Of a stretch of 64,000 nucleotides of DNA, positions 24,916 through 39,090 are shown one piece after another. The position numbers and the translations under genes are program-made. Position 1 is the stretch's first letter; each line of letters opens with the position of its first letter. The notes below the pieces were generated by a model. The model ran no database searches and was not told where the DNA came from. It saw nothing but the letters and a program-made list of their open reading frames with translations. The DNA comes from Acidobacteriota bacterium (GTDB lineage: Bacteria; Acidobacteriota; UBA890; WLXD01): the NCBI GenBank assembly GCA_965248695.1, contig CBDFKD010000002.1, positions 2,752,001 to 2,816,000 of the forward strand, in the 5' to 3' direction.

Positions 24916-25139
24916 GACGCCCTCCGCGTTGTCTGATTCAGACTCGCCCCGATCCGCACCACGAGCACTTCGCACAACGCCCGCTCGCTCGGGTGCAGCC
25001 GCCGTCTCTGCCTCGTTGCAATCGAGTCCAGGACCTCCAGCTCCCATTCCGTGAAACGCCGGTGGCTCGCATCCAGCAGAAGCTCGATCAGCTCGCCGTC
25101 GGGTAGCTCGGCGAGATCGAGGCTCGGTCGTTCGCTCAC
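24912..25139 (-). CDS. Phage hypothetical protein
   Basis: GTGA-coupled; [12 protein letters not shown]. Confidence 0.6.
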
Positions 25140-25849
25140 GATGCCTCCTTCACGCCGGCTTGCCCCAGCGTTCGATAGTCGGGCGTTGCGAACACGACCT
25201 CCTGGCACGTCTCGCTGAGCCGTCCCGCGACACGCTCTCCGACGTGACGGGCTCGATCTCGCTGATTCAGGTTCGTGGTCACGATCGTCGCGCGCATCTC
25301 GTCGTAGCGCTGTGTGAGCACGTACACCAGCTGCTCCACGGCCCAGTCCGTCTCGCGAATCGCCCCCAGGTCATCGAGCACCAGAACGTCGGCGCCGACG
25401 ACGCGATCCAGCATGTCGCCGACACGCACGCCCTCAGCCTCGATGGCGTCCTTGAGCTCTTGGATCAGGCGCGCTGCGCGCACAAAACGACCGCGCAGGA
25501 CATGGGCGGATCGCAGCGCTCGGAGGGTCGCGACGGCCAAGTGTGTCTTGCCCGTGCCGGACGGCCCGGACAGCAGCAAGCCCCGCCCCGATGGCTCGAA
25601 GCGTTCAACGAACTGCTGGCACTCGGCCAGAGCCTCGGCGGTGTTTCCGCCGCCTGGCTGGAACGTCTGAAACGACGAGCTCAGGAACCGCGCCGGCACG
25701 CCGCGGGAGGCTAGCACGGCCTTCGGCGACAGCTTGCAGGCGCAGCGCGCCATACCATCTTGCGGCGTCTCCACCCAGCCGACCCCGTTGCACGCCGGAC
25801 AGGCTGGCTGCGTCGCTGGGCTTGTGGTTCCGGTTGCGGTTTCGATCAT
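25136..25849 (-). CDS. DnaC/IstB-like helicase loader ATPase
   Basis: CPAC..CAC Zn motif, [26 protein letters not shown]. Confidence 0.9.
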
Positions 25850-25908
25850 GTTTTCCGGTCGGTGGCGGTCGTCACGTGGGGGCGGTTGGCATGCGGTCTG
25901 GCGGCTAG

Positions 25909-26952
25909 CTACGGCGGCTTGTTGGCCTCTTGGCGGATCGCCTTGATGGCATCCCAGTCGGGCTGCTGTCCGGCATCGAGCGCCGCGTTGGCCTGCCGAC
26001 GCCACTGCTTCTCGCGCTTGACCCGGAGTGCCTCAGCCTCCCAGTCCGTCTCGCTGGGCGCGGCCGGCCCGCTGCCGGTTTGGATCTTCGGTGGCGGATG
26101 CACGGCGTTCCAGGTTGCCGCGTTGAACACGGCCTGCGGCGAGCCCACGTGCCGGCCCGAGACGGCAACGTGCTCGATAACCGCGAGCGCTTCCTGGACC
26201 GTGCCGCCGGCCTCAAAGCGCTCTTGCAGGTACCGGGTGCCGGAGCCGGGAGTCGCAGTGCGGCAGAAGCGATCGTTGAAGACGGCCAGCACTTCCAGCA
26301 TCGCCTCGTCGTGCTCGCCCTGGCCGGCGGGCGGTGGCTTGCCGGTGGTGGCGGTGGTGGTGGCGGTGGTGGTGGCGGCGGCGGTCGGGTCGCGCCCCGA
26401 CCCTGCATTCGAGCACCGAGGTTTCTGACCACCACCACTTGGTGGTTCTGGTTCTGGTTGTGAAGGTGAAGGTGAAGGTGAAGGTGAAGGTGGTTGGCAT
26501 GTTTTTGCCATTGGCAAATGCATGGTTTTGCCATAGCTTTTGCCATAGCTTTTGCCATAGCTTTTGCCATAGCTTTTGCCATGGCTTTTGCCATCACTTT
26601 CGCCGTTCTTTTGCCATCGAGACTCTGCGCCTTTCTTGCCGTACTCCGCACGCTTCCGGCGTAGCTCCTTGGCTCGTTCAAGCTCTTTCGTGATCCGGGT
26701 ATGCGTCAGGCAGCCATCGATCTCCGTGAAGTAGCCGGAGATTCCGGGCCACAACGACTTCCACTCCTCAATAGACACGCCGAGCATGCGGGCCAACCGC
26801 GCCGAATCGGCGGATATCGCTCCGTCCTTTGCCCAGAGATTCCAGAGCAACAGCGTGTACGCACCGTGCTCTTGGAGCGTCAGGTCCATCGTGTCCGCGA
26901 GGTAGTCGCTCACGTAGAACGGCATGAACGCCTTCACCCCCCTACCACTCAT
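25909..26952 (-). CDS. DUF1376/YdaU-family phage replication initiator
   Basis: FMPFYVSDYLADTMDLTLQEHGAYTLLL; upstream of the loader. Confidence 0.88.
   Translation of the reverse strand: MSGRGVKAFMPFYVSDYLADTMDLTLQEHGAYTLLLWNLWAKDGAISADSARLARMLGVSIEEWKSLWPGISGYFTEIDGCLTHTRITKELERAKELRRKRAEYGKKGAESRWQKNGESDGKSHGKSYGKSYGKSYGKSYGKTMHLPMAKTCQPPSPSPSPSPSQPEPEPPSGGGQKPRCSNAGSGRDPTAAATTTATTTATTGKPPPAGQGEHDEAMLEVLAVFNDRFCRTATPGSGTRYLQERFEAGGTVQEALAVIEHVAVSGRHVGSPQAVFNAATWNAVHPPPKIQTGSGPAAPSETDWEAEALRVKREKQWRRQANAALDAGQQPDWDAIKAIRQEANKPP
26503..26618. repeat. 12-bp iteron array, likely phage replication origin
   Basis: TTTTGCCATAGC x4 perfect (26526-26573), degenerate copies and palindrome TTTGCCATTGGCAAA. 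Confidence 0.8.
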
Positions 26953-27208
26953 TGCTCACCTCGCTCGGCAACCACGGCACCCCCCGCTCCCAGAGCGCCG
27001 CTAGCTGCTCGGTGTCGCGAGCGGCATAGGCGCGCACCAGCTGTGTCAGCAGTGCCGCGTCCATGCCGAACACGTTGTCGCGCATGTACCAAGCCGGTGC
27101 TCCGCCGTAGGCAGTGACCTCAGCAGACTTGCCCCGTACGGACAGCACGCGTTTCACCGCGGCTTTCCCATCCGCCTCCCGGCACAGCACCAGTGGGTGC
27201 CCTTTCAC
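26942..27208 (-). CDS. Phage hypothetical protein
   Basis: Coupled ORF in the early operon. Confidence 0.55.
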   Translation of the reverse strand: MKGHPLVLCREADGKAAVKRVLSVRGKSAEVTAYGGAPAWYMRDNVFGMDAALLTQLVRAYAARDTEQLAALWERGVPWLPSEVSNEW

Positions 27209-27726
27209 GCGGCCACCCCCGGTCCATCCCGCCCTACCAACGGTCCCAGCGCTTGGCGCGACAGCCACACGAGCGCGAGCGCCAGTGCGGCCCACTCGTC
27301 AGCGACGAGACCGTACAGCGGCCCCGGCGATGCCTTGGTGCCCACAGCCTCCTTACGAGAGCCGCCGTACAGATCCATCAGTGCCGCCCGCACGTTGGCA
27401 TCCTTGGCGCGTGCGCTACGGCACAGTGCTGTCTTGACCTGCACACGGCTCAGCAGATCGAACGGAACCGAGCGCTGGCGGCAGACTCCTCGGATCTCGC
27501 CGATGTTCTTGACGGTGTCGAACACCTCACGTCCGACCGGCATTCCGTAGGAGACAACGTCCTCAACGACGACTTGTTGCGTCGTGGTCTCATCGACACC
27601 GTTGATCGCTTGTTTCAGGTGCCCCATCGGGCAGTTGCGCTCATGCGCGCGCACCTCGCCGCACTCGTCGCACAACACCCACGAGCCACCCTGTGGATCG
27701 GGGTCGATCGCTAGGACAACCTGCAC
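27205..27726 (-). CDS. RuvC-like Holliday junction resolvase
   Basis: LAIDP, VVVE...YGMPVG, AKDANVR, DEWAALALA. Confidence 0.75.
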   Translation of the reverse strand: MQVVLAIDPDPQGGSWVLCDECGEVRAHERNCPMGHLKQAINGVDETTTQQVVVEDVVSYGMPVGREVFDTVKNIGEIRGVCRQRSVPFDLLSRVQVKTALCRSARAKDANVRAALMDLYGGSRKEAVGTKASPGPLYGLVADEWAALALALVWLSRQALGPLVGRDGPGVAA

Positions 27727-27748
27727 CGTTACGCCGCCTCGTTGACCG

Positions 27749-28357
27749 TCATCTTTGTCTCTCCAGTGGTCCAGCTTCGTAGAAGGGCACGTCGGCGGCG
27801 GTGATCGGCGGCGGCTCGTTGTCCGCCGGTGGCGGTGGTCCTGCCGCGGGGGCCGCCCCAGGCGAGGCCACCGGTGGCGGTTGTTGTCCCGCCGCCGCTG
27901 CAGCCGCCCGCAGCATCGATCCGTATCGTGCCTGTAATCCGTTCACTGTCTCCTCGGAAGCCCCCGAGCGCGGCTCGTATTCCTCCGGGTTCATCCACGT
28001 GGCCCGGTACTGCGTGCGCCCTTCGTACGTCTCCCCCTTCACCGTGATCTGCACCACCACGTTGGGCGGCGGACCACCGAACACGTCGCGCAGATCGCCA
28101 CTCCAGCCCAGCGAGGCCGCCAACTGCTCCACGGGCCCGGCGTTGAGCCTTCCATCCCGCCTCACCACCCACCAAGAGCCGTAACAGGTGTGCGGCTCGT
28201 ACTGTGCCCAGTCGTGCCACTGGCCAGAGCCGTCCCATTCCGACAGGATCTCCAACTGCAACGACACCGCTGCCGCTTGAGACTCCTTGGCATCCTGTAC
28301 GTTCCAGCTCACCGGACGGGCCTTGAAGATGCCCTCGCGATCTAGTTGTTGACTCAT
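27749..28357 (-). CDS. Putative phage single-stranded DNA-binding protein
   Basis: Follows Sak4; Pro/Ala linker and DVPF tail. Confidence 0.6.
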   Translation of the reverse strand: MSQQLDREGIFKARPVSWNVQDAKESQAAAVSLQLEILSEWDGSGQWHDWAQYEPHTCYGSWWVVRRDGRLNAGPVEQLAASLGWSGDLRDVFGGPPPNVVVQITVKGETYEGRTQYRATWMNPEEYEPRSGASEETVNGLQARYGSMLRAAAAAAGQQPPPVASPGAAPAAGPPPPADNEPPPITAADVPFYEAGPLERQR

Positions 28358-29181
28358 TACTTGCCTCCGAAAATCTGATCCCACACCGCGCCGTCTTGCG
28401 CCGAGGTGTAGGGCATGGGCTCGGGCAGAAGCGTGCGCGACTTGGCCACATGCGTAGGCATCTCCGCCGGGTAAATGCTGCGGGTGCCCGCGCCGATCCC
28501 CTTGCCATCCTGCGCCATTACGTCGTAGCTCAAGAACAGGACGTGGTCGGCCCACTGAAACACCTCGTCGCGGATCGAGCCCTTGCCCGAGCGGGGCTTT
28601 TGCAGATGCGGCTCGTACCGGATCCAGTCCTCGCCCGCGGGGTTGGGCACGTTCTCGATGCAATTGTGGGCAATGAGAATCACGTTGCGCCCAGCGCGTA
28701 CCTGCCGGTCCAAATCCGCCAGCAGCAACAGATACGTCTCATATACGTGCTGGTAGCCCTTGCCAAAGCCGTACTCCTCGATACGGCTCACACTTCGGCC
28801 CTTTTCGTGCTTCACGGTGGCGAGCGTATGGGCCACCGCCAACCTCTCGACTCTGGTGGCGGAGTCGATGATGACCGTGCCCGCACCCTCCAGCGCATCG
28901 GAATGCAGGCAGGCACGTAGCGCACTGAAGGATCCCAATTGTTCTTGGTGGATACCTTCCACGTCGTCCAAGTGCCAGGCACCCCCTTCTACGTCCAGCA
29001 CCACGGCCCCTGGAGCCAGCGATGCCAGTGTCGTCTTGCCGATGCCTCCCGTGCCGTACAGCAAGACGCGCTGCGGTTTGTCGCGTCGGGTGATGGCCCT
29101 GGCGAACTTGTCTGGGGCTTCAGGGACCGGCTGCGGTCCTGTCGTTGCCGCCGGTGGCGGTAGCGGTTGCGTGGCTTTCAT
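28357..29181 (-). CDS. Sak4-like AAA_24 ATPase
   Basis: LYGTGGIGKT, VIIDSAT, GFGKGY, AKSR. Confidence 0.88.
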   Translation of the reverse strand: MKATQPLPPPAATTGPQPVPEAPDKFARAITRRDKPQRVLLYGTGGIGKTTLASLAPGAVVLDVEGGAWHLDDVEGIHQEQLGSFSALRACLHSDALEGAGTVIIDSATRVERLAVAHTLATVKHEKGRSVSRIEEYGFGKGYQHVYETYLLLLADLDRQVRAGRNVILIAHNCIENVPNPAGEDWIRYEPHLQKPRSGKGSIRDEVFQWADHVLFLSYDVMAQDGKGIGAGTRSIYPAEMPTHVAKSRTLLPEPMPYTSAQDGAVWDQIFGGK

Positions 29182-30185
29182 GCCCTTACCTCCTGAGGTT
29201 GCCCACTAGCCTGGGCGTGGCGTGTCGGGCTAACTCCCGACTCAGCAAGCTCCGGGTGAACGTCATCCACCCGGACAAATCCGGAAGGAGTCACCTCCTC
29301 CAGGTCACGGTTGGTGCAGATCGGCAAGTACCGGCACGACCCAAAGTTGGAGAAGCACGCCCCGGGATTCCGGTACCAGTGGCCAGCCTTCTGAGCAGCG
29401 CGCATCGCTAGCTGCTGCTGCCATAGCTCGGCAGCGCATTCTTCGAGGTCCTGGTCTAGGCGTGCTATCTCGATGCGCGTGAAGTAGTGCTCGGGGCGCT
29501 TGTCGATGGCCTCGGCGACGCGCATCGCGTACTCCGCTGGCGTCTCGTCCCTGTCGCGCTGCTTCGCGTACAGCTGTCCGTTGCCCTTGTACTTGCGCTT
29601 GTCCTCGGGTGTCGCCTTCAACGGCCGTAGGCCCGGCCGTCGCGTCACGTCGTACAGGATCGTGTCGATATCAAAGCCCAACTCGCGTGCAGCCAACATG
29701 TAGATTGACAACTGCTGGTCCAGATGCAGCCGTGTCCAGTAGTCCGATCCCGGGCTAAAGTCCTGCGATGTGGTTTTGCTCTCCTTGAGTGCCAGACGAC
29801 CGTCCGGCAGCCGCACCATGCGATCGATCACCCCTGCGATGTCCCACACCGAAGTGGGAGCGCCCGTCTCAGGGTTGCGCAGCGGCAGATTGAATTCGTA
29901 CTCCGACTCCACGCTCTCCAGCTGGTGGTCGGCCCATCGCAGTTGGTAGGCGTTGACCATCGCGGCCACCAGGGCGAGGTCGTACGGATCCTCTACAGCC
30001 GCCTCCATTACGGCATCCAGATCACCACCCTTGTTGATCGTGTCCAGGGCCAGGTGGAACGCTGAGCCAACGCGCAGTGCCAGCGAGTCGCTGTCGGGCA
30101 CCAGGCCGAGCTCGTAGCGGATGTAGTGCTTGTGCGGGCAGGACCGAAAGGTGGCCAGACGCGAGTGCGTTAACGTCTGCTTCAT
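29178..30185 (-). CDS. PD-(D/E)XK exonuclease
   Basis: HSRL..F.SCP, GVIDR...ESKT, QLSIY, C-terminal Cys cluster. Confidence 0.88.
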   Translation of the reverse strand: MKQTLTHSRLATFRSCPHKHYIRYELGLVPDSDSLALRVGSAFHLALDTINKGGDLDAVMEAAVEDPYDLALVAAMVNAYQLRWADHQLESVESEYEFNLPLRNPETGAPTSVWDIAGVIDRMVRLPDGRLALKESKTTSQDFSPGSDYWTRLHLDQQLSIYMLAARELGFDIDTILYDVTRRPGLRPLKATPEDKRKYKGNGQLYAKQRDRDETPAEYAMRVAEAIDKRPEHYFTRIEIARLDQDLEECAAELWQQQLAMRAAQKAGHWYRNPGACFSNFGSCRYLPICTNRDLEEVTPSGFVRVDDVHPELAESGVSPTRHAQASGQPQEVRA

Positions 30186-30616
30186 GACGCCCTCCGCCCA
30201 TGCCACACTATCCGGCACTCATCCGAGCAGAAGTACTGCTGTTTGCCTCTCAATACCGTGTGGCACACACCACAAAGCGGCCCCGGGGGCGCCACGGCTG
30301 CCGTGCACGGGTCTTGTGCGGGATACACGATCCAGACAGCGGCCTTGCGGCCCGAACGCGTCCTGCGCGTGTAGGTGGCCTTGAGGATCCGACCGAGCTT
30401 GTACAGCTCCAAACGCCGAGGTCTCTGTGTGGAGGGGTTCATCCTGAGTGCGTGCTGGATCTCCTCGTCGGTGGCCCCGTACGGGCAGGAGGCGATGTAG
30501 GCCAGCACCCGGGCTTGGAGCTTGCTGAGGGAATCCACGATCGCCTCGGCGGCGGCCCTGGACTCCTCGGAGTGGCGCTGGTACGGAGGGGTCGAAAACA
30601 GCGACGTTTGCGTCAT
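30182..30616 (-). CDS. Winged-HTH + Zn-finger phage protein
   Basis: GATDEEI...RPRRLEL...RTRSGRKAAVW; CGVC...FCSDEC. Confidence 0.7.
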   Translation of the reverse strand: MTQTSLFSTPPYQRHSEESRAAAEAIVDSLSKLQARVLAYIASCPYGATDEEIQHALRMNPSTQRPRRLELYKLGRILKATYTRRTRSGRKAAVWIVYPAQDPCTAAVAPPGPLCGVCHTVLRGKQQYFCSDECRIVWHGRRAS

Positions 30617-30810
30617 GCCGCTCGATCCTCCGGGTTCTGCAGCCCCTCGTGGCGCCGCAGCGCCTCCATGTACTCGGGCGATAGCTGCCCCAGCCGAAAC
30701 GGCCGGCGACGGCGAGTACGGAAGATCTCCCGGGCCGTGTGGATGCACACCGCCAGGCACCACACCGCGAAGGCGGCCAGCCCAGCGCTTACCCACCACG
30801 GGTTGCCCAT
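30613..30810 (-). CDS. Small membrane protein
   Basis: One TM helix, coupled ORF. Confidence 0.55.
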   Translation of the reverse strand: MGNPWWVSAGLAAFAVWCLAVCIHTAREIFRTRRRRPFRLGQLSPEYMEALRRHEGLQNPEDRAA

Positions 30811-31424
30811 TACGCCACCTCGCCGTTGAGGTATTGGAACAACCGAGTACGCTGCCAGTCGGGTTCGACACCCCTGGCGACACCCCAGGGGGCATCCCTG
30901 GTGACATCCCTGGCGGCAGCCCTGACGGCATCCATGGGAGCATCCCAGACGACGGCATCCCAGGCGGCATTCGTGGCGGCAGCCCTGGTGGCTTCCAACT
31001 CATCGCTATCCGCTTCGCCTGCGGCGAACCGCCTGGCGACCTCGATGGCTTTCCACGAACGCTTGTCCTTGCAGTCGGCGAGCTTCAGCGCTCGCTCAGT
31101 GCAGTCGCAGGCAAACAGTCGCTGGGTGCGCGCATTCCATGTCTCGACGCGCTCGACTAGTCGAGCCTTGCGGGCCACCACCTTGTCGGCGCGCTCGATG
31201 ATCCGGCCCTGGTACTCGGCGACGTACAGCTCTGGACCCGACCACTCGTCGAGCAGGTCGGTACCGCGACACAGGTGCAGTTCGTAGGGCTCTAGCTCAC
31301 CCTTGACCGCGAACCACTTCCCCGGCTTGCCGTTCTTGGGCAACCCCCACTGACCCGTACCGCCATTGCAAGGCTCACCCTCAGAGCCGGTGTACTTGTA
31401 GAGCAGATCTGGCGTGTACTTCAT
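30810..31424 (-). CDS. Phage protein with Imm5-like domain and AAWDA repeats
   Basis: RLFACDCTERAL...AIEVARRFAAGEA..DEL. Confidence 0.7.
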   Translation of the reverse strand: MKYTPDLLYKYTGSEGEPCNGGTGQWGLPKNGKPGKWFAVKGELEPYELHLCRGTDLLDEWSGPELYVAEYQGRIIERADKVVARKARLVERVETWNARTQRLFACDCTERALKLADCKDKRSWKAIEVARRFAAGEADSDELEATRAAATNAAWDAVVWDAPMDAVRAAARDVTRDAPWGVARGVEPDWQRTRLFQYLNGEVA

Positions 31425-31948
31425 GCCCCCATCTGCCTCTCGTCGGGCCGCCAGTTCGTCGCCGCGTTGACCCTCATCGTTGACGCGGAACGCAGCAGGA
31501 TCGCCTTGAGTCGCTCGCAGCAGGACGCCCACTGTCGCCACTCTTGTATGTCGATCACGCCGTCCACGAACGCCAGCGATCCAAGCGATTCCAACGTGCC
31601 TGCCGTTTGCGTCATATCGGCAGTCATCGCGTGGCCCGAGGAGTACGGTGGCAGCGGTTCGGTCAGGTGTTGCTCGTGCAGGTACCGGGCCGGGGCCGTG
31701 GCGTAGTACCGCTCTTGCCCCAGAGCCACCGATGCCTCGATGATCAGATCCAACCTCGCCAGCGGGCTGCGCACGCCGGTGTCGGTGTGCTCGCCGACCG
31801 GCCGCTGCCACTTCTGCACCAGCGAGGCCGATAGCCCGAGATGTCGGGCTACGCCGTTGGTGTACGGGCCGATGCAATCGCGCATCGCATCCCACGGGTA
31901 GGTACCTGCCGGGTCGCGGGGTGTGTCCTGTTGGCTTGATATGGACAT
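31421..31948 (-). CDS. CII-like phage regulatory protein
   Basis: VARHLGLSASLVQKW...SPLARLD; DGVIDIQE. Confidence 0.55.
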   Translation of the reverse strand: MSISSQQDTPRDPAGTYPWDAMRDCIGPYTNGVARHLGLSASLVQKWQRPVGEHTDTGVRSPLARLDLIIEASVALGQERYYATAPARYLHEQHLTEPLPPYSSGHAMTADMTQTAGTLESLGSLAFVDGVIDIQEWRQWASCCERLKAILLRSASTMRVNAATNWRPDERQMGA

Positions 31949-32028
31949 CGTTGTCTTCTCCGTCATCGAGCCCACCCCGACTACGGATAACGCCGCTCCG
32001 TGCGGCGCGGTTGGGAAACGCGGTACCT

Positions 32029-32367
32029 TCACGCCGCCCTCGATGTGATTTCAGCGAAGGCGACCTCATGCAGAGGCTTGCCGCCAGCTGTTAGAAGTGC
32101 TGGCAGACTCGTCAAGTACTTCGGCCAGGTCTGCCCCGTTGGCAGGACCGTTTCGTCCGACAGCTTGGCTCCCCCGAGACTGGCTCCCTGGAGGTTGGCA
32201 CCCCGGAGGTCGGCTCCCCAGAACTTGGCTTCCCGGAGGTCGGCACACTGGAGGTCGGCTTCCCGAAGGTTGGCTCCCCTGAGATCGGCGAGCCAAAGGC
32301 TGGCTTCTGAAAAGTCGGCACACCGAAGGTCGGCGCCCGGTTCGATCTCCCACTCGTTGACTATCAT
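32029..32367 (-). CDS. Pentapeptide-repeat protein, short paralog
   Basis: ADLxG repeats; shares [10 protein letters not shown]...[12 protein letters not shown] then diverges. Confidence 0.82.
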
Positions 32368-32549
32368 TACGCTGCCCTCGATGCGCTCTCGGCAGCCTCA
32401 TTGCACGTACAGGCATGCGCCAGCTCGCCGCAGCACTCACACGTAGCTACCGAGTCGTCGCAGTACCCCGAGGTGCACACCCAGTCCGCTTCGTAGTCGA
32501 AAGCAGCGTCCAGGCCGCAGGCCAGGCAAGCGATCTCGCCGACGCTCAC
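32367..32549 (-). CDS. Small Cys-rich phage protein
   Basis: Coupled ORF with several CxxC. Confidence 0.55.
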
Positions 32550-32782
32550 GCCGCCCCCTGGGGCTCGCTGACCGGCTGAAGGCGCGCAACCATTCGCTGC
32601 GTCACCACGTCGCCAATCAGAGTCGCTACGAATGCGAGTTGGTCCTGCTCATCGAGCCGCGCGTAGTATTCGAGCAGCCGGCTCACAGCTTCGCTCGGTG
32701 TCTCCGGGAGCTCCCTGAAACATGCCGGGCACAGGGGGCCTTCGTGGTGGCGGGTGTCAACGAACCGGGTCCGGTCGCTCAT
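32546..32782 (-). CDS. Phage hypothetical protein
   Basis: ATGA/GTGA coupling; CPAC. Confidence 0.6.
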   Translation of the reverse strand: MSDRTRFVDTRHHEGPLCPACFRELPETPSEAVSRLLEYYARLDEQDQLAFVATLIGDVVTQRMVARLQPVSEPQGAA

Positions 32783-32964
32783 GCCGCCCTCCCGGTGTAC
32801 AGATCCACGTAGAAATCCAGATAGTCCTCAGCGCTGAGATCCCGAGCCGTGCAGCGCTGACGCTCCGCGAAAGCACGGCGCGTGGCGGCATAGTCCAGCC
32901 CCCGGCGCTCGCAGTACTCCCGGCACCAGCGGGCCAGCGAATCGAGACGGCGTTCGCGGCGCAT
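32779..32964 (-). CDS. Phage hypothetical protein
   Basis: Coupled ORF. Confidence 0.55.
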   Translation of the reverse strand: MRRERRLDSLARWCREYCERRGLDYAATRRAFAERQRCTARDLSAEDYLDFYVDLYTGRAA

Positions 32965-32966
32965 CG

Positions 32967-33356
32967 CTACCGCCCCACTCCGAACACGGCCTGGGAGCGG
33001 AAGGCGCTGACGAGCTCACCATCGTCGTCCCACTGCGCGCAGGCCATGCACACCACCGGGGGGTTGTGATCGGCGATCTCGCGTGGGTGGGTGGATTGGT
33101 CGCAGGAATCGCACACCGGCCACAGGCGCACACAGGTGGGGCAATAGGCCAAGTAGCCGCGCAGGCACCAGCCCTCTTCCTCTTCCTCCAGCCACTCCTC
33201 GACGGCGCCACAGGCCAAGTACTCATCGCGCGGCGCTTCGATCCTCCTGTTGCAGGAATCGCACTCGATCAGCATCAGGACAGCAGCGGGGCTGGGGGCG
33301 ACGGCGCACTCGACATCGTGTCGAGATACGCGGGCCGTGCTACAGTTGGAGTGCAC
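32967..33356 (-). CDS. Zn-finger phage early protein
   Basis: AGGAGG RBS before GTG 33356; four CxxC pairs. Confidence 0.6.
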   Translation of the reverse strand: MHSNCSTARVSRHDVECAVAPSPAAVLMLIECDSCNRRIEAPRDEYLACGAVEEWLEEEEEGWCLRGYLAYCPTCVRLWPVCDSCDQSTHPREIADHNPPVVCMACAQWDDDGELVSAFRSQAVFGVGR

Positions 33357-33502
33357 TGGAATGACCTCCTGTGTGGTTGTGGTTTGGGCGTGAGGAGTTG
33401 CCGCTTCTCGCGCCCTTTTTTCGTTCGGGAGTGCCACTGCGCGGGGGCCGATCCTTCGCAGTGGCGTGTGGGTACCTGCTTTCGGTAGCGTCATCGGGCC
33501 TC

Positions 33503-33703
33503 CTAAGCGGCCTCGTCGAGTGCGAACAGATCCTCGACCTGCACTTCCAAGGCAGCAGCGAGGCGCAACGCTTTATCGACCCGGGGCACAAACCGGCCGT
33601 TGACGAGCCGGTTCACGTAGGAGTAGTCGAGCCCGGTGCGCCGAGCCATTTCACGCTGGCTAACACCGTGCCGGTCGAGTACGTCCTGGATCGTGTATCG
33701 CAT
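33503..33703 (-). CDS. Cro-like HTH regulator, cassette A
   Basis: GVSQREMARRTGLDYSYVNRLVNG...VEDLF; faces the early operon. Confidence 0.88.
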   Translation of the reverse strand: MRYTIQDVLDRHGVSQREMARRTGLDYSYVNRLVNGRFVPRVDKALRLAAALEVQVEDLFALDEAA

Positions 33704-33827
33704 TGGCGTATTCTCCACTGCCTTATAAGGCAGTTACATAATAGCTAGTATCGTTGATGATAACAAGACTGTTAGTGCTTTTTCTGGTGTTGACGAATCT
33801 GTCAGTGCCCGGATAGCCTCGGCCGGC
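33704..33827. promoter_or_regulatory. Divergent switch A
   Basis: TTGACG(33790)-18-TAGCCT for cI; TTGTTA-17-TATTAT for cro; perfect palindrome ACTGCCTTATAAGGCAGT 33717-33734; CTGT(T/C)AGTGC x2. Confidence 0.7.
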
Positions 33828-34049
33828 ATGGAACTGCGGGATCGCATCAGGGCGCTCGTAGAAGCGCGCGGCACGACGCTCACCCAAGTAGCCGAGTCCA
33901 TGCCGACGCCTGCTGGCCGCACGAGCTTCTGGCGCGTGGTGAGCAAAACGCGACCGACTAGGGACCCTCGCGCATCCACCCTTCAGAAGATCGCCCGCGC
34001 TCTGGGCGTCACCCTCAGCGAACTTCTTGAAGGCGTCGAGTTCGACTAG
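33828..34049 (+). CDS. cI-like XRE repressor, cassette A
   Basis: HTH; PRASTLQKIARALGVTLSELLEGVEFD. Confidence 0.88.
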   Translation: MELRDRIRALVEARGTTLTQVAESMPTPAGRTSFWRVVSKTRPTRDPRASTLQKIARALGVTLSELLEGVEFD

Positions 34050-34120
34050 CCGCGTACGTTCTCTCATCGGACACCCCCGCCAGCGCAGGAGCCGCCATCG
34101 GCCGCGAGGAGCTGTGCCAA

Positions 34121-34882
34121 TTGGGGCTTGATGGAAGTCGCGCCAAACTTCGTCGGGCAAGCCAGCACCTCGAGGCGCTCAAGAGAGAAGCTGACTCCTT
34201 CTTTGAAGCGAACCTCTATCGAATCGCCGTTGAGCCTGAGATCGACGAACTCCACTACGTCGCTCGCGTCAAAGATCCTCCTGCTTTGCCCAGTAGTGAG
34301 TGGGCGCTGACTATCGGCGATTGCATCCACAACCTGCGGTGCTCGCTCGACTACATCGCTTGGGCGCTTGCTGGGGCCGATCTCGATGACACACTCACTC
34401 AGTTCCCGATCTTCGACTCCGAGCGGGCATACAAAGCGCGCGGCACTCCGCGCATGATCCACCTTCCCGCTGAGGCCCGATCCTTGATCCAGCGCGTTCA
34501 GCCGTACCAGAGTGACGATCCCGTGATGGCGCCCCTCTCCCTTCTGAGAAGACTGGACAACCGGAACAAGCACAAATTGCTCTCGGTCGTCGCCGCGATG
34601 CCCGAGCGCTTCCGTTTGAACGCTCTCGTCGATGACGAATCCGCTGGCCAGCCCAAAACGTTCATCGCCGTCACCAAGCCCCGCCTGGTACACAACGCAA
34701 AAATCGCGACCCTCGTCTTCTCTGCACCCCCAAAAGTGCAAATGGATACGCTTGTGGTCGCGCGCGTAGTCTTCGGCGAAGGTATGGGGCCTGATACCGG
34801 CTTGGCTGTATTCGAGAGCCTTGACGCGCTCGTGGTCGAGGTCGGATGGGTCATCGACGCTTTCGATGAGAAGTTCTTCTAG
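34121..34882 (+). CDS. Cargo protein, possible HEPN-like helical domain
   Basis: AKLRRA..HL, GDCIHNLRCSLDY, QFPI, LRRLDNRNKH. Confidence 0.7.
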   Translation: MGLDGSRAKLRRASQHLEALKREADSFFEANLYRIAVEPEIDELHYVARVKDPPALPSSEWALTIGDCIHNLRCSLDYIAWALAGADLDDTLTQFPIFDSERAYKARGTPRMIHLPAEARSLIQRVQPYQSDDPVMAPLSLLRRLDNRNKHKLLSVVAAMPERFRLNALVDDESAGQPKTFIAVTKPRLVHNAKIATLVFSAPPKVQMDTLVVARVVFGEGMGPDTGLAVFESLDALVVEVGWVIDAFDEKFF

Positions 34883-34930
34883 CTCATCGGCTCTCCGGCG
34901 AAGCTCCATGAGAAGCGTGACGATGGCCTC

Positions 34931-35009
34931 GCCCACTGCGCCGCCTGCCTGATTTCGCAGTGGCGTCGAGGTGCTGGGGCTCGGTATCGTCATCGCTCAG
35001 GCGGCCTCG
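34931..35009. repeat. Cassette boundary repeat R1
   Basis: Homologous to R2 and R3; contains CACTGCG-N15-CGCAGTG. Confidence 0.9.
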
Positions 35010-35263
35010 GTGCTTGGCGCTGGCTCGTCGGCGGTCTGTTCCAACACTCGCTCCCGTGCCTCCGCTGCTGCATTCTCGGCTGCTTCCAGGCGGTCCAGAG
35101 CGGCGGTGACCTTGGCCTTGAAATCGGCGGGCGGTTGGCGTAGCCCGTTCAGGTAACGGGAAAACAGCGTGGGCTCGTAGCCGGCCGTGAGCGCCAGTCG
35201 CTCTTGGCTCACACCCAGCTGGGCGAGACGGCTGCGTACCTGCTGTACATGAATAGTTTTCAT
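34997..35263 (-). CDS. Cro-like HTH regulator, cassette B
   Basis: GVSQERLALTAGYEPTLFSRYLNGLRQPP. Confidence 0.85.
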   Translation of the reverse strand: MKTIHVQQVRSRLAQLGVSQERLALTAGYEPTLFSRYLNGLRQPPADFKAKVTAALDRLEAAENAAAEARERVLEQTADEPAPSTEAA

Positions 35264-35326
35264 GATCCCGAACTTAGATGAGATTTATTCATTAGTCAAC
35301 ACCGTTGTTGCCGCTAAAGTGAAAAA
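35264..35326. promoter_or_regulatory. Divergent switch B
   Basis: Minus TTGACT(35299)-17-TAAGTT-7-ATG; plus TAAAGT 6 nt before GTG 35327. Confidence 0.7.
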
Positions 35327-35596
35327 GTGCTTGGGGACCGGCTAGCGAAGACGCGAAAGCGGCGAGGACTATCGCAGTTCCAGCTCGCGGTTGAACTGGG
35401 AGATCGCTACGACCAGTCGATGATCTCCCACGTCGAGAACAATCGAACAGGCCTCGTGCGCGACGGGCTGATCCAAGCTGCCCGCGTGCTCGGCGTTTCA
35501 ACGGACTACCTGCTCGGTCTTACCGACGACCCCACGCCCGCTGCCGACCGCGACACCCCGCGCGCCTGCCCCAAGTGCGGCCACGAGTTCGACTAG
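35327..35596 (+). CDS. cI-like XRE repressor, cassette B
   Basis: LGDRL...RGLSQ..LA...ISHVEN...LGVSTDYLLGLTD. Confidence 0.9.
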   Translation: MLGDRLAKTRKRRGLSQFQLAVELGDRYDQSMISHVENNRTGLVRDGLIQAARVLGVSTDYLLGLTDDPTPAADRDTPRACPKCGHEFD

Positions 35597-35668
35597 CCGT
35601 ACGCCCCGCACTGCGCCGTCTGCCTGATTCCGCAGTGGCGTGGGGGTGGTGGGGCTCGGTAGCGTCAT
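35585..35668. repeat. Cassette boundary repeat R2 (84 bp)
   Basis: 81/84 identical to 36218-36301. Confidence 0.95.
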
Positions 35669-35671
35669 GGC

Positions 35672-35872
35672 TCAGGCGGCCTCGTCGTTCGCTGGGAACA
35701 ACTCGTCGAGCGTCTTGCCAAGCGCTGTCGCCATCTTGTGAGCAGTAGGGAAACGGCAACCGAGGCCGTTGCAGACACGATTAACCTGCGTCGGATTGAC
35801 GCCCGATTGGTCCGCAAGCCATTTCTGCGTCCGGCCCTGCCGTTCGAGTTCAGCGCGAACTTCATTCTTCAT
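35672..35872 (-). CDS. Cro-like HTH regulator, cassette C
   Basis: GRTQKWLADQSGVNPTQVNRVCNG...LGKTLDELF. Confidence 0.88.
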   Translation of the reverse strand: MKNEVRAELERQGRTQKWLADQSGVNPTQVNRVCNGLGCRFPTAHKMATALGKTLDELFPANDEAA

Positions 35873-36013
35873 GAGGTAATCCGTGTATCAGACTATGCTG
35901 TTCTGCAGACTTGCTAATATACATATGGTCCACGTTGCTGTCAATGCATATTTGCATACCCGTCGTTTTGCATACGTTGACGCGCATTGGTGGCGCGCGT
36001 AGCGTCGCAGCCT
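35873..36013. promoter_or_regulatory. Divergent switch C
   Basis: Minus TTGACA(35944)-17-TATATT; plus TTGACG(35977)-17-TAGCGT; TGCATA x3 between them. Confidence 0.75.
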
Positions 36014-36229
36014 ATGGTCAGAACCCTCGGAGGCCGCATCCGGCTGATCGCTGACGAGGCGGAGATCAGCCTTAACGAACTCGCCCGCCGGGCGCGGATG
36101 GACCGGGCCTACCTTGGTCGGGTTCTCAACGGACAAACGCCTAGTCCAGGGATAGCGAACGTCGCCAGAATCGCCCGCGCTCTTGGCGTCACCCTCAGCG
36201 AGCTTCTGGAAGGCGTCGAGTTCGACTAG
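36014..36229 (+). CDS. cI-like XRE repressor, cassette C
   Basis: ISLNELARRARMDRAYLGRVLNG...IARALGVTLSELLEGVEFD. Confidence 0.88.
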   Translation: MVRTLGGRIRLIADEAEISLNELARRARMDRAYLGRVLNGQTPSPGIANVARIARALGVTLSELLEGVEFD

Positions 36230-36301
36230 CCGTACGCCCCACACTGCGCCGTCTGCCTGATTCCGCAGTGGCGTGTGGGTGGTGGGGCTCGGTAACGTCA
36301 T
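36218..36301. repeat. Cassette boundary repeat R3 (84 bp)
   Basis: 81/84 identical to R2. Confidence 0.95.
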
Positions 36302-36313
36302 AAGTTGGCTGGC

Positions 36314-36390
36314 TCAGGCAACTCTCTTACGAGACGAAAAAGAAGACTCGGGGCACTCGAACAACGCACAGAGAACCCAAACCAACTCGA
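36314..36390 (-). pseudogene. 3' remnant of a probable fourth Cro-like gene (cassette D), cut by IS256
   Basis: ...ELVWVLCALFECPESSFSSRKRVA* ending GCCTGAGC at the cro-equivalent position. Confidence 0.45.
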
Positions 36391-37753
36391 GGATCCGGCC
36401 CGAGTCCTGTGGAAATAAAGATGGCGTAACCTCCGAGTAGGAAAAACACAAAGCCGCCACGAGCGGCAGGAGGCTACGCCGTGAAGCAGGTTAGCACGGA
36501 GGGAACCGGGCTCGTCGAGTTCCGGCAGGACGTACAGGCGCTGTTGCGCACCAGGATCCGCGAGGCGATCCAGATGACGCTTGACGAGGAGCTCACCGAG
36601 GCGCTGGGTTGCGACCGATACGAGCGCAACGGGCAGCGGCGAGGCTACCGCAACGGCAGCCAAAGGCGTCGGGTGACGACAGCCCAAGGGCTCCAGGAGC
36701 TGGACATACCGCGGGGGCGCATCGTGGGGCAAGACGGCAGCACCCGAGAGTTCCGCAGCGCGATCCTGCCACGGTACGCACGGCGAGCCCGGCAGGTGGA
36801 CGAGGCGATCCTGGGAGCATACCTGGCGGGAGCCAACACCCGGCGGATCCGCAAGGCGCTCTCTCCGCTGCTGGGCAAGGCGCACCTGACCAAGAGCACG
36901 ATCTCCAGGGTGGTGGGGCGCCTGAAGGCGTACTTCGAGCGCTGGAGACAGCGAGATGTGTCAGGCGAGCGGTACTGGATCCTGTATTTGGACGGGTTCC
37001 ATCTGAAGGTCAGGCTGGCGAGGCGGGTCGTGTCGGCGCCGGTACTGGCGGTGCTCGGGGTCCAGCCCGACGGCCAGAAGGTGTTGGTAGCGTTGCAGTT
37101 GGCGGTCTCGGAGGCAGCGGTGCACTGGCAAGGACTGATCGAGTCGCTGGTGAGACGAGGGCTGCAGGCGCCGGAGGTGCTGATCGCCGACGGCCACAAG
37201 GGCCTGGCCAAGGCGATCGAGGTATGGCCCGATGTGTCGGTGCAGCGGTGCACACAACACAAGTGGAGCAACTTACGCGACCACTGCCCGGTTCATGCAC
37301 GTGCGGAGATGAAGCGGGACTGGGATGCGATCGTCCGGGCCGATGACGGCAACCAGGCCAGAGCCGCCTACGCCGCCTTCGTACGCAAGTGGTCGACCCT
37401 CGTGCCCGCCGTGGCCCGGAGCCTGCAGGAGGCCGGCTTGAACCTGCTGACTTTCTACCAGTTCCCGAAGCCGATGTGGAAGACGCTGCGCACCACCAAC
37501 GCCCTCGAGAACCTGAACCGGGAGTTCCGTCGTCGTACCAAGACGCAGGGCTCGTTCTCGACCGAGGCCGCTGGGGTGACGTTGCTGTGGAGCCTGGTCG
37601 CCTTCGGCCAGATCCGCATGCGACGCATCGATGGCCACCGGTTCTTGGCTCAGCTCACGTGCGGCCCCGACAAACAGGCCGCCTAACCGATAGGATCATC
37701 CGTCGTCGCGGAGGAGACGCTCATCCAATTTCCACGACATTCGGGGCACATCC
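36391..37753 (+). mobile_element. IS256-family element
   Basis: Imperfect IRs GGATCCGGCCCGAGTCCTGTGGAAAT / ATTTCCACGACATTCGGGGCACATCC; no target duplication. Confidence 0.9.
36481..37686 (+). CDS. IS256 transposase
   Basis: GYRNG, LYLDG, IADG, QRC..H, TTNALENLNRE. Confidence 0.95.
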   Translation: MKQVSTEGTGLVEFRQDVQALLRTRIREAIQMTLDEELTEALGCDRYERNGQRRGYRNGSQRRRVTTAQGLQELDIPRGRIVGQDGSTREFRSAILPRYARRARQVDEAILGAYLAGANTRRIRKALSPLLGKAHLTKSTISRVVGRLKAYFERWRQRDVSGERYWILYLDGFHLKVRLARRVVSAPVLAVLGVQPDGQKVLVALQLAVSEAAVHWQGLIESLVRRGLQAPEVLIADGHKGLAKAIEVWPDVSVQRCTQHKWSNLRDHCPVHARAEMKRDWDAIVRADDGNQARAAYAAFVRKWSTLVPAVARSLQEAGLNLLTFYQFPKPMWKTLRTTNALENLNREFRRRTKTQGSFSTEAAGVTLLWSLVAFGQIRMRRIDGHRFLAQLTCGPDKQAA

Positions 37754-39090
37754 TTGTGCTCCGGTGGCACGGCGCCATCCGCACCCCACCAGGCGCAGAT
37801 CTTGGCATCCTCGAACGCCAACAATGCCGGCTCACGCTCGACCATGGCAATCACGTCTTCCTTGGTCGGACGGTTCGCCCCCATGTCGCCGCAAATGTGC
37901 GCCAGATGCGTGCCCAGCGGCGGCACCGGCAGGCCGCTGACGAATCGGGCATCGGTTCCGGCCAGAATGCGCCCGTAGTTCTCGGTCTCGACCTCGGCCC
38001 AGCTGTCGGCGTCGAAGAAGTCGTCGAGCGCCGAGTAATCACCCTTCTGCACCCTCGACAGCACGTTGGGCAGCTTCATGTAGATCGTCTCGAAGCGGCG
38101 GTAGAGGCGCCCCATGAACGCTACGCCGTCGAACGACATGGTGACCGTCGTGCCGTCCCGGGTCTGCACCGTCTTGGTGTGCGGCCGCTCATCCAGAATG
38201 CGGCGTACCCGATCGATCTCGTAGTACCAGGCGGGGAGCAGCTCGCGACAGTGCGGGTCTTCGGCGACGCAGAGCCCGAGGATGTCGGTGTACACCTGCT
38301 TGATGGTGTAGAACTCGTCGATCGCGGCGCGGTTGCGGATCTCGCCGAACCAGGGGCTGAGCAGGACGATCGAGCGCACGCGGTCGGGGAAGTAGCGCAG
38401 GTACGCGATCACGCTGCCGCCGCCGGTGGAGTAACCGTAGGCGTTGATCTGTTCGTGGCCGAGGAGCTGACGGATCTCGTCGACATCGCGGGCGATGTCG
38501 TACTCGTTGTACTTGGTGACGTCGATGCCCTCCGCCATCAGCTTGTCGTAGCAGCGCTCGACGGTCTCGGCGTGCAGGCGCAGCCGCTCCATGGAGTCGT
38601 TGGTCAGAACGATCGACGGCGCCAGCCGGTTCTGGTAGGGCGACATGGCGATGTCGGGGCACGACAGCGTCGGCTCGGAGTTGAAGAAGCCGCGGTGATC
38701 GATGAGCACCAGCGTGCGGGTCGCAGCGTCGGTGCGTAGCCAATCGACATAGGCGCGCATAGGAGACAGCCCCGGACCGCCGGGAAAATACACGACCGGA
38801 TCGGGGTGCGGACGTGCGGACCCGTGGTCGGGGGCCATGACGGCGACCGGGAGCTCGACGATGGTGCCGTTCGGATCGTCACGATCCTCCTGGCCGAAGA
38901 ACCGGTAACACTCGGCGTTGGCCCCGAGGAGCTCCGGGGTCGTGCACTCGGCTGACTCCAGCCTCGGCACCTGCGCCTGAATCTGCGCTGAGGGAGCGCC
39001 CGCCAGCGCGAGCAGCCAGACGATCGAGGCGGCAGCGAGCCTGCGGCGCGTGAGCACTCTGACCGCGCTCGGTTCTACTCGAATACCCAT
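37754..39090 (-). pseudogene. Secreted alpha/beta hydrolase, C-terminus removed by IS256
   Basis: PGGPG and GYSTGG; similarity to its paralog stops at GAVPPEH, the IS end. Confidence 0.82.

Follow-up and report, generated by a model that had tools for sequence, protein, structure and literature searches.

A tandem stack of switch-like cro/cI modules in a phage-like integrative element of an Acidobacteriota bacterium

In the usual picture, a temperate phage or satellite has a single lysis-lysogeny switch, which sets the immunity group. In the genome of an Acidobacteriota bacterium, we find instead several complete switch-like modules that are truly stacked in tandem, at what would be the immunity end of a phage-like integrative element of about 15 kb. 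We somewhat favor the explanation that an ancestral switch was extended inward by a stack of modules, that the stack was reshuffled by homologous recombination, and that the inner repressors give cross-immunity. No description of tandem switch stacks like these, for satellites or otherwise, was found in the literature searched. The window, i.e. the whole 64,000-nt stretch that was analyzed, comprises positions 2,752,001-2,816,000 (forward strand) of contig CBDFKD010000002.1 in assembly GCA_965248695.1.

Anatomy of the array and its host element

Between positions 33503 and 36301 of the window, three pairs of small HTH genes follow one another, each pair oriented divergently around its own AT-rich intergenic region (Table 1). 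All six ORFs lie where an earlier note on this DNA had placed three complete cro/cI pairs, and all six match HTH_3 or HTH_31 in profile searches; the unit lengths given in that note (1499, 675 and 633) returned as identical start-to-start spacings in the repeat search. The six proteins share 25-44% pairwise identity. Their genes have the common ends that had been claimed for them, as all three plus-strand, cI-like genes have the 3' end GAGTTCGACTAG, and all three minus-strand, cro-like genes end with GAGGCCGC and a stop codon. The array has a GC content of 61%, and its three intergenic regions of 63-114 bp have 38-46%. The inner cI-like proteins of the window (73-89 aa) consist of the HTH domain only, and the domain search detected no oligomerization or peptidase (S24) domain at their C-termini. 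The start of cro-A is likely an internal ATG that gives MRYT..., as judged from the alignment of the A1 and A2 alleles, and for cI-C the gene caller offers an alternative 71-aa form that starts at 36014. The cargo gene found no match in Pfam, PHROG, PADLOC or NCBIfam and has four full-length homologues (37-41% identity); the structure model of its product has pLDDT 81 and found no match in the PDB, and a single match (E 2.9e-11) is to an unnamed viral protein.

Table 1. Features of the switch array and its host element (window positions, except for the last line)
Feature	Position	Strand	Remarks
Tyrosine integrase	22620..23717	-	element's left end; PHROG 1 E 6.7e-47; Pfam Phage_integrase
Early operon	25136..33494	-	same direction as cro-like genes; profile searches
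Core R0	33433..33496	-	conserved 62-nt leader between cro-A stop and first early ORF
cro-like HTH gene A	33503..33718	-	HTH_3 5.8e-11; 71 aa as listed
Intergenic control region A	33719..33827		46% GC
Short cI-like HTH gene A	33828..34049	+	73 aa, ends GVEFD; HTH_3 1.3e-06
Cargo gene	34121..34882	+	253 aa; same direction as cI-A
Core R1	34932..34993	-	repeat search, core alignment
cro-like HTH gene B	34997..35263	-	88 aa; HTH_31 5.2e-05, under curated cut-off
Intergenic control region B	35264..35326		38% GC
Short cI-like HTH gene B	35327..35596	+	89 aa, ends HEFD; HTH_31 3.1e-09
Junction R2	35579..35668		cI 3' end + linker + core; reference copy
cro-like HTH gene C	35672..35872	-	66 aa; HTH_3 1.8e-07
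Intergenic control region C	35873..35986		45% GC; TTTGCATAC direct repeats
Short cI-like HTH gene C	35987..36229	+	80 aa as listed; HTH_31 2.4e-11
Junction R3	36212..36301		94% identical to R2
3' stub of fourth cro-like gene	36302..36390	-	77 coding nt; cut by IS256
IS256-family insertion sequence	36391..37753	+	transposase 36481-37686; Transposase_mut 1.3e-82
5' part of fourth cro-like ORF	G000:C2:2304215-2304346		132 nt; swapped 8-bp target duplications

The host element of about 15 kb contains integrase, replication and recombination genes. Its early operon encodes a DnaC-like loader and a DUF1376 primosomal protein for replication, a RusA-like resolvase, a Sak4-like annealing protein and a PD-(D/E)XK exonuclease for recombination, and in addition a pentapeptide-repeat ORF and small Zn-ribbon-like ORFs. 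Neither virion or lysis families nor terS- or cpm-like genes were matched among the ORFs scanned, which included the small ORFs in part. The bacterium's own genome holds at least four copies of the element, seven exonuclease matches were obtained in genome G007, and three element copies are flanked on both sides by host genes or IS elements. The array had been assigned to “one prophage”, but the phage-like element, with about 15 kb and no detected virion gene, looks like a satellite or a defective element and not like a full prophage.

Behind the junction of the third module lies what remains here of a fourth cro-like gene, a stub that is in register with the cro 3' ends and is interrupted by an IS256 copy. 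Ten other IS256 copies match at 100% over 610 nt. The 8 bp that precede the IS256 of the window, CAACTCGA, recur directly behind a second IS256 copy, which is located at G000:C2:2304215. The remaining flanks of these two copies, TTGTGCTC, are swapped in the same way. The stub that had been suspected from the window is thus real, and the swapped 8-bp target duplications locate the other half of the gene, together with a longer cI and the right end of the element, 484 kb away. Reconstruction gives 132 + 77 - 8 = 201 nt, i.e. 67 codons, and beyond the 5' part follow a divergent 111-aa HTH_3 gene and then the element's conserved right end.

Control regions and possible read-through

Control region A contains a perfect 18-bp palindrome at 33717-33734 and the direct repeats CTGTTAGTGC/CTGTCAGTGC; in control region B, the repeat search at 10-mer level found none. 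A consensus scan of the control regions detected promoter-like sites only upstream of cro-A (33766-33738) and cro-C (35944-35916, 11/12 positions), both on the minus strand, and no plus-strand site upstream of any of the three cI genes. All cro-like genes point in the direction of the early operon, and as the same kind of scan, which is weak as negative evidence, predicted no minus-strand terminator-like site between the modules, the outer promoters may read through, so that control of this operon by the adjacent cassette alone, as the earlier note had proposed, is only one possibility.

Could the serial promoters then be a multi-input induction gate? The loss of any one repressor, e.g. via an anti-repressor of a different helper phage, would fire the early operon and thereby widen the inducer range of a satellite. 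This would suit the uniform orientation of the cro-like genes, the promoter-like and absent terminator-like sites, the intact cro genes of the inner modules and the satellite-like, multi-copy nature of an element without detected virion genes, and the short repressors without autocleavage domain would have to be inactivated by a partner protein. However, beyond the weakness of the terminator scan, Rho-dependent termination or repressor roadblocks could block the read-through, transcripts would collide with the convergent cI transcription, and neither a helper phage nor an anti-repressor was identified. We therefore regard induction as a rather unlikely reason for the existence of the stack.

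Sibling loci, selection and decay

The junction core occurs in 21 copies in 7 of 10 loci scanned, which belong to two genomes of different genera (the own genome and one other); all arrays thus come from two genomes and probably from one sampled community, so that they do not count as independent evolutionary samples. The seven loci contain 1, 1, 3, 3, 4, 4 and 5 pairs. Modules A and B come first and second in the window, third and fourth in array G7a, and second and third in array G7b; in array P1, A comes first and a diverged B third. The early operon is adjoined by module A in three loci, and by E and D in the two remaining arrays. An identical, fixed arrangement in all relatives, which the earlier note had named as a refutation of its reading, was thus not seen. 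The order A-cargo-B is colinear over 2.2 kb in the second genome, with different flanks.

A conserved right end of about 230 bp is present in P1, X5, X1, G7a, G7b and G7c and also after the displaced cI of the window, and it lies directly 3' of a long cI. Longer cIs of this kind (111-171 aa) are found in both single-pair loci and, for the window, P1, X5 and G7a, in the pair farthest out; all six have HTH matches, four of them above the Pfam cut-off, and no S24 domain was found in them. Four of the five arrays thus combine short inner modules with a long outer cI, the sole exception being G7b with an aberrant outermost pair that gave no HTH match.

We computed pN/pS for genes with an internal position in one or more arrays. 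It was 0.07 for cI-A1 against the G7b copy (11 synonymous and 2 non-synonymous changes), 0.13 for cro-B against G7b, 0.15 for cI-D and 0.29-0.35 for cI-B; the cro-A comparisons gave 0.67-1.34, from just 6-18 differences. The low ratios show purifying selection on the shared modules, and the inner modules look functional.

The stacks might also be neutral debris, generated by unequal recombination at short conserved stretches among near-identical siblings, which would produce transient stacks without benefit. Copies for such recombination are available in both genomes, and few genomes have the family, which was found in 2 of 61 relatives, in 3 of 401 genomes from the phylum and in neither of the viral-contig scans. 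Decay is also visible: cI-A2 is frameshifted in X5, which indicates that some stacks are decaying, P1 has an orphan cI-D without cro, G7b an inverted Sak4 fusion, and IS insertions are present as well. Against this stand the purifying selection, even if it was possibly exerted while the modules were proximal elsewhere, the complete pairs that are kept in most positions, and the same architecture in four of five arrays, and it appears improbable that the stacks are without any benefit.

Junctions and breakpoints

The repeat search delineated a 90-nt family at 34904-34993 (71%), 35579-35668 (reference) and 36212-36301 (94%), of which a 42-nt core is also found at 33455-33496. The junction that the earlier note had described as one repeat of about 84 bp does recur, but it falls into two parts that can be separated. 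One is the cI 3' end and the other the 62-nt core directly 3' of each cro, and the cargo gene lies between them. The alignment of the 21 cores shows the invariant elements GACG.TACC, CGCCACTGCG and GCGCAG. The core also contains an inverted repeat, CACTGCG-N15-CGCAGTG. No promoter-like or terminator-like site was found in any core by the consensus scan.

Compared with G7a, the window is 98-100% identical at 33499-33698 and 34049-35100, and 48-78% identical at 33699-34030 and 35100-35500. Further homology blocks end in the core, just 3' of cI stops and at the start of cro-A; breakpoints lie at six or more different places, several of them within cro and cI. These scattered, partly intragenic breakpoints, together with a non-integron integrase, favor homologous recombination at the linkers over the integron-like swapping of cassettes that had been proposed earlier.

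In an integron-like system, recombination would take place at the core, and circles of about 0.65-1.5 kb would be cut out and inserted by a recombinase. Cores do flank every module and contain the inverted repeat, some homology blocks end in the core or directly after the cI stop, and a contig from one of four runs has, at depth 3, a joint that leads from 34955 back to 33457, a step equal to the 1499-nt unit; this joint is, however, of low depth and from a community sample that contains sibling elements. The only integrase of the element is 11 kb distant and reaches 43.9 bits with the integron profile TIGR02249 (cut-off 265) and 28.5 bits with PRK15417 (cut-off 435). An attC-like consensus is missing, as the core has a single stem of 5-7 bp and no second box pair in the 21-copy alignment, the right arm of this stem is altered in 7 of 21 copies with no compensatory change, and the cores fold no better than shuffled sequences (z from +0.35 to -1.9). 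Moreover, the core is also an ordinary leader after cro in single-pair loci, and the modules have their own divergent promoters. With breakpoints inside cro and cI in addition, a dedicated cassette system is very unlikely. That an assembler chained alleles of one locus, from strains or siblings, in tandem is least probable of all, even though siblings with near-identical linkers co-occur and the public-run contigs, from one community sample, break at shared junctions with no listed piece covering two modules, since the genome is in two contigs (5.76 Mb and 128 kb) and the junction repeats have just about 90 nt, the A-cargo-B segment recurs between different flanks, the same grammar is found in five separate arrays of two assemblies, and the target duplications of IS256 agree with a fourth module that really exists.

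Proposed explanation

The likeliest function of the inner modules would, from our analysis, be cross-immunity. The element would originally have had a single switch, consisting of the outermost cro and the longer cI beside the right end, and short switch modules would have been added inward from it. Each module comprises a cro-like and a short cI-like HTH gene on either side of an AT-rich control region, and sometimes cargo. The linkers consist of the cI 3' end (“...EFD stop”), the 62-nt core that lies directly 3' of each cro, and the final part of cro (“...EAA stop”). For the assembly and reordering of the stacks, ordinary homologous recombination between linkers of the many co-resident siblings would suffice, possibly assisted by the Sak4-like, exonuclease and RusA-like proteins of the element, and site-specific cassette recombination would be unnecessary; the first linker joint would still require an illegitimate event. 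Each extra repressor would then silence siblings whose working switch is that module. Against cross-immunity, the cro-like genes are kept as well, though pure immunity needs none. In addition, no element with B or C as proximal switch was found in the two genomes, and a visible target for B/C immunity is therefore absent. The proposed explanation is also weakened by the lack of plus-strand promoter-like sites upstream of the cI genes, of 10-mer repeats in control region B and of oligomerization or peptidase domains in the short cI-like proteins, and by the frameshifted cI-A2, the high cro-A ratios and the derivation of all arrays from two genomes.

A further-reaching idea, which we consider doubtful, is that the stack is a working, recombination-driven switch library that combines programmable, multi-specific immunity and multi-input induction in one satellite. 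Siblings would exchange modules, perhaps as mini-circles that arise between cores. Every inner repressor would shut off another rival element, and each inner cro promoter would be a separate trigger of the early operon. Arms-race selection would diversify the specificity segments, and the linkers would stay fixed.

Relation to known systems and significance

The lambdoid immunity region is organized as cI, operators and cro, and is subject to mosaic replacement of the imm434 or imm21 type. The modules resemble it in their divergent HTH regulators that flank an AT-rich control region, with the cro side along the early operon, and in the allelic specificity segments within conserved flanks. Unlike the lambdoid region, the arrays have 3-5 tandem modules, the inner “cI” proteins are HTH-only proteins of 66-90 aa, and the element is without detected virion genes. 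Phage-inducible chromosomal islands (PICI) are phage satellites that measure about 10-18 kb; they have an integrase, a repressor pair and genes for replication, but none for virions or lysis. The element shares with them its size of about 15 kb, the integrase, the divergent repressor pair, the replication module, the presence of several copies per genome and the lack of detected virion genes among the ORFs scanned, but its gene order differs, with the integrase at the far end of the operon on the cro side, and no packaging-redirection genes were recognized. With integron arrays, it has in common tandem cassettes of 0.6-1.5 kb and a repeated separator of about 60-90 nt that contains an inverted repeat; in contrast to integrons, there is neither an IntI-type integrase beside the array nor an attC consensus with paired R/L boxes, and the modules are divergent pairs with own control regions and intragenic breakpoints, whereas integron cassettes are mostly promoterless and co-oriented.

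Orphan immunity arrays of the Vibrio cholerae T6SS arise by sequential displacement and homologous recombination (PMC5361080). Both systems stack horizontally acquired determinants beside a working module and keep them after displacement; shuffling by homology without a dedicated site, which is the favored reading here, and protection against kin as the proposed benefit are further parallels. The T6SS arrays consist of toxin-immunity proteins that have lost the effector partner (PMC5361080), whereas here transcriptional switches are stacked and cro is usually kept. PeSL cassettes of T4-type phages have a promoter and a terminator stem-loop, and neighboring copies can recombine to release mini-circles (PMC2839356). 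Short conserved non-coding linkers between variable genes and modular shuffling are shared with this system, here with 21 cores in 7 loci, but unlike in PeSL, the core has no promoter or terminator in the consensus scan.

If the proposed explanation is true, immunity specificity can accumulate and is not just replaced, in parallel to the orphan immunity arrays of toxin systems. Natural orthogonal repressor/promoter pairs would then stand in series on one operon, which bears on the conflict between intracellular elements, and the modules may be a source of small orthogonal regulatory parts. With invariant linkers alternating with hypervariable specificity segments, the stacks would be a compact natural test case for the old “linker” model of how phages evolve by modules.

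Architecture of the array

Between the early operon and IS256, the window carries three head-to-tail units, each composed of a cro-like HTH gene on the minus strand and a cI-like HTH gene on the plus strand, with an AT-rich gap between the two; these modules are termed A, B and C from the early operon outward. All six proteins match HTH_3/HTH_31 (cro-B only below the curated cut-off), their pairwise identity is 25-44%, and the gaps have a GC content of 38-46% vs 61% for the array. The plus-strand genes share the 3' end GAGTTCGACTAG and the minus-strand genes share GAGGCCGC plus stop, in all three cases each, and the junction repeats are spaced by 1499, 675 and 633 nt. The sequence statements of the earlier note thus all hold. 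Candidate operators differ by module: A has a perfect palindrome of 18 bp plus two direct repeats, C has direct repeats, and no repeat motif was found in control region B at the 10-mer level. Promoter-like sites lie upstream of cro-C (11/12) and cro-A, and no terminator-like site was predicted on the minus strand between the modules. On the plus strand, the first early ORF contains a strong terminator-like hairpin with T-run close to the left side of core R0; this hairpin is conserved in the sister locus X5 and in the loci G7a and G7b of a second genome, G007.

Coordinates of features (window positions unless a contig or locus is named)
Feature	Position	Strand	Remark
Three units	33503-36301
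Core copy	33455-33496		42 nt, repeat search of window
90-nt repeat family	34904-34993		71%, same search
90-nt repeat family	35579-35668		same search
90-nt repeat family	36212-36301		94%, same search
Terminator-like hairpin	33386-33415	plus
cro 3' ends with -AA	33503-33511, 34997-35005, 35672-35680
Cargo part	34741-34902
Identical cargo part	G000:C2:5219416-5219577		162 bp
Split cI-A2 of X5	G000:C2:5226136-5226370
HTH-AAA_24 fusion of G7b	L020:12693-13670 (G007)	plus	325 aa
IS256	36391-37753		extent determined in window
Distant IS256	G000:C2:2302852-2304214
464-aa ORF	37696-39090	minus	abuts IS256 right end
612-aa paralogue	39075-40913		next to 464-aa ORF
Tyrosine integrase	22620-23717		left end of element
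Dispersed repeat	21791-22066		~276 bp, beside integrase end
Element remnant	2681-2984		89% identical to integrase-adjacent region
Element remnant	7378-7641		86% identical, cI-A-like ORF

Among the 18 complete cro-like proteins of nine loci (fragments and the non-HTH outer ORF of G7b set aside), 16 end with -AA, mostly -EAA, the exceptions being the copies of the sister locus X1 and of module G in X5. For mycobacteriophage repressors, such an ending is described as an ssrA-like degradation tag (PMC9934374). By resemblance, the -AA end may mark the cro-like proteins for proteolysis, which would be an alternative reason for the conservation of part of the cro 3' end.

The linker core

Directly past the stop of every cro-like gene, single-pair loci included, lies a 62-nt core. 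An alignment of 21 cores from seven of the ten loci scanned gives the invariants GACG.TACC, CGCCACTGCG and GCGCAG, and 20 of these 21 copies have an ATG at the core start, overlapping or near the cro stop. As a G7b core has no ATG (a ParB-like gene begins 12 nt past it), and as in X1 the next gene has its own ATG immediately after the core, we regard it as a conserved leader and not as a protein N-terminus. A nut-like role of this leader would be an analogy to lambda nutR in position only. A structured RNA is not supported: the inverted repeat CACTGCG-N15-CGCAGTG has lost outer pairs in seven copies with no compensatory change, four cores fold no better than shuffles (z +0.35 to -1.9), and Rfam gave only two chance-level matches at a permissive threshold. 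Since cargo genes follow the cI stop and precede the core, the junction repeat, which is present with the spacing noted earlier, consists of two separable pieces and is not one unit.

Module shuffling among sister loci

Eight loci were oriented as the window, with module letters of our own. Shared modules vary in position, and the operon-proximal module varies too, so that the relatives do not have the one fixed arrangement which had been named as speaking against a cassette array.

Module order, from the early operon outward
Locus	Modules
Window	A1 + cargo, B, C, K (long cI)
P1 (contig C1)	A2 + cargo, D (cI only) + cargo, B', F (long cI)
X5	A2 (cI frameshifted) + cargo, G + cargo, H (long cI)
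G7a	E + cargo, C-like module, A2 + cargo, B', I (long cI)
G7b	D, A1 + cargo, B + cargo, aberrant outer pair
X1	single pair, long cI
G7c	single pair, long cI

In X5, the frameshift splits the proximal cI-A2 into ORFs of 48 and 53 aa, and this sister element may be derepressed or dead. The outermost plus-strand gene of G7b fuses an HTH-like N-terminus to an AAA_24 (Sak4-like) domain, the source of which is the Sak4 gene of the element itself in an inverted copy. Part of the window cargo recurs with 100% identity beside an IS, at a distance of about 5 kb from the X5 array.

This cargo is a real plus-strand ORF of 253 aa with four full-length homologues (37-41% identity) and a diverged 285-aa relative at the same position in G7a. 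It matched no family in four libraries, and falls only into unnamed clusters of the Atlas. Its structure model (mean pLDDT 81) matched no solved structure in the PDB, and one unnamed viral protein at E 2.9e-11 and TM 0.70. With neither a family match in those libraries nor a PDB fold match, a defence-gene label was not adopted.

How the stacks form

Between the window and G7a, identity is 98-100% over cro-A (33499-33698), 48-78% over the control region and cI-A (33699-34030), again 98-100% over the cI stop, cargo, core and 3' third of cro-B (34049-35100), and 48-78% over 5' cro-B, control region and cI-B (35100-35500). How fine this mosaic is can be seen from the cargo, which differs at 1/762 nt, whereas the adjacent cI alleles differ at 63/222. 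Compared with G7b, whole modules are ~94% identical, and the ends of these blocks lie within the core and several bases past the cI stop; the divergence of the A1 and A2 alleles begins exactly at the cro-A start. Altogether, the homology breakpoints fall at at least six different places, several within genes. Judged from sequence, this spread is what homologous recombination at conserved stretches leaves behind, and not what a single-site recombinase would leave. The integron-like mechanism that the earlier note had proposed is not borne out by such breakpoints, nor by the element's integrase, which is not integron-type. The element's own annealing protein, exonuclease and resolvase may be involved. 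Phage SSAPs reportedly carry out relaxed recombination (De Paepe et al., 2014), and modular phage evolution is the subject of the theory of Susskind and Botstein. The only read data used as evidence, a weak hint, is a contig joint that runs from 34955 back to 33457, i.e. by the unit length of 1499 nt (one of four runs, depth 3).

The fourth module and IS256

The 8 bp before the window IS256, CAACTCGA (36383-36390), recur directly after an identical distant copy, and the 8 bp before that copy, TTGTGCTC, recur after the window copy (37754-37761). The target duplications are swapped, which means that flanks were exchanged between the two copies. The sequence downstream of the distant one begins with the 5' 132 nt of a cro-like ORF, followed by an HTH_3 gene of 111 aa in divergent orientation and a ~230-bp segment that is terminal in every sister element. 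The split fourth cro adds up to 132 + 77 - 8 = 201 nt, which fits one 67-codon gene. From the two cro halves and the long cI it follows that the window array was at first made up of four modules, with a longer cI at its end; swapped duplications and matching lengths thus bear out the proposed stub of a fourth module.

The two copies are identical and directly oriented (window 36383-37761 and G000:C2:2302844-2304222, L073). By the target duplications, the ~485-kb segment between them would once have closed on itself, which suggests either that a once separate replicon was fused into the chromosome via IS256 or that the assembly switched at the IS. Likewise, by TTGTGCTC, the sequence right of the window IS256, where a 464-aa ORF and its paralogue lie, would formerly have continued from G000:C2:...2302851.

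The host element and its distribution

Left of the array, the cro strand encodes small Zn-ribbon-like and pentapeptide-repeat ORFs, a PD-(D/E)XK exonuclease, a Sak4-like annealing protein, a RusA-like resolvase, a DUF1376 primosomal protein and a DnaC-like loader, and a Na/Pi cotransporter gene lies beyond the integrase. The ends are shared by sister copies on C1 and at C2:5.22-5.24 Mb, which have a virion gene at neither flank. With ~15-16.5 kb and no virion gene among the ORFs scanned, the element, called a prophage in the earlier note, reads as satellite-like or as belonging to a prophage family whose members are all defective. The window's genome, G000, has at least four copies, and G007 has seven exonuclease matches. 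The dispersed repeat beside the integrase looks MITE-like, being partly self-complementary with 33 further BLAST matches of at least 150 nt in the genome (70-98% identity), and may be related to the integration sites of these elements. The window also holds remnants of another element copy, the second of which is N-terminally truncated and ends with GVEFD.

The junction of cI 3' end, core and cro 3' part was found elsewhere in G000 and, among 61 relatives, in G000 and G007 only, the latter being of a different genus in the same family. The exonuclease search agrees (the same 2/26 genomes of the order), and a cI-C-like protein occurs in 3/401 genomes of the phylum. A pattern scan of genome contigs gave 44 stretches in unrelated taxa, one site each (10 palindromic, listed on both strands), which is consistent with chance. 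Two metagenome matches had nothing else in common with the arrays, two scans of viral contigs gave none, and blastn against phage and plasmid collections gave no match. Three IMG/VR loci with exonuclease relatives (45-62% identity) had a single HTH ORF in two cases, none in the third, and no stack. The further G007 copies G7d and G7e share the left part only, and neither an HTH pair nor a core was found in the stretch retrieved. Arrays with other contents, which the earlier note suggested looking for in relatives and viromes, exist in G000 and G007 and were not found in the two scans of viral contigs.

Proposed role of the inner modules

In searches of full-text literature, no description of tandem cro/cI stacks turned up; the parts are ordinary, and it is the stacked, shuffling architecture that is missing from the literature searched. 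The nearest concepts found are the shuffling mediated by PeSLs (PMC2839356) and the immunity arrays of T6SS (PMC5361080). The evidence is comparative throughout and was drawn from two genomes, probably of one community.

The best reading is that the inner modules may provide cross-immunity through retained or acquired repressors. A second, open reading is a multi-input induction gate, for which it speaks that the cro partners are retained and that every cro promoter is directed at one operon, no terminator being predicted on the way. Neutral debris is a minor alternative: the frameshifted cI in X5 and the orphan cI in P1 count against module function. Purifying selection on shared modules speaks for function, with pN/pS of 0.07 for cI-A1 (window vs G7b; 11 synonymous, 2 non-synonymous), 0.13 for cro-B (window vs G7b), 0.15 for cI-D (P1 vs G7b) and 0.29-0.35 for cI-B (vs G7a). 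For cro-A, several comparisons give 0.67-1.34, from no more than 6-18 differences, some of which lie in a 5' extension that is doubtful. An assembly artefact is a further minor alternative; in the assembled reads (four runs, contigs of one sample and study from which the assembly itself may derive), none of the pieces listed covers two modules, and variant joints mostly match sibling-element junctions. No RNA run was listed as carrying the region.

The case for cross-immunity is incomplete, as none of the G000 and G007 loci showed B or C in the proximal place. A and B are inner modules in G007, and A is the proximal switch in three G000 elements; that A is inner in the one genome and proximal in the other is what one would expect of inner repressors that target siblings. 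On the model of the orphan immunity arrays of T6SS (PMC5361080), such inner repressors would protect against sibling elements.
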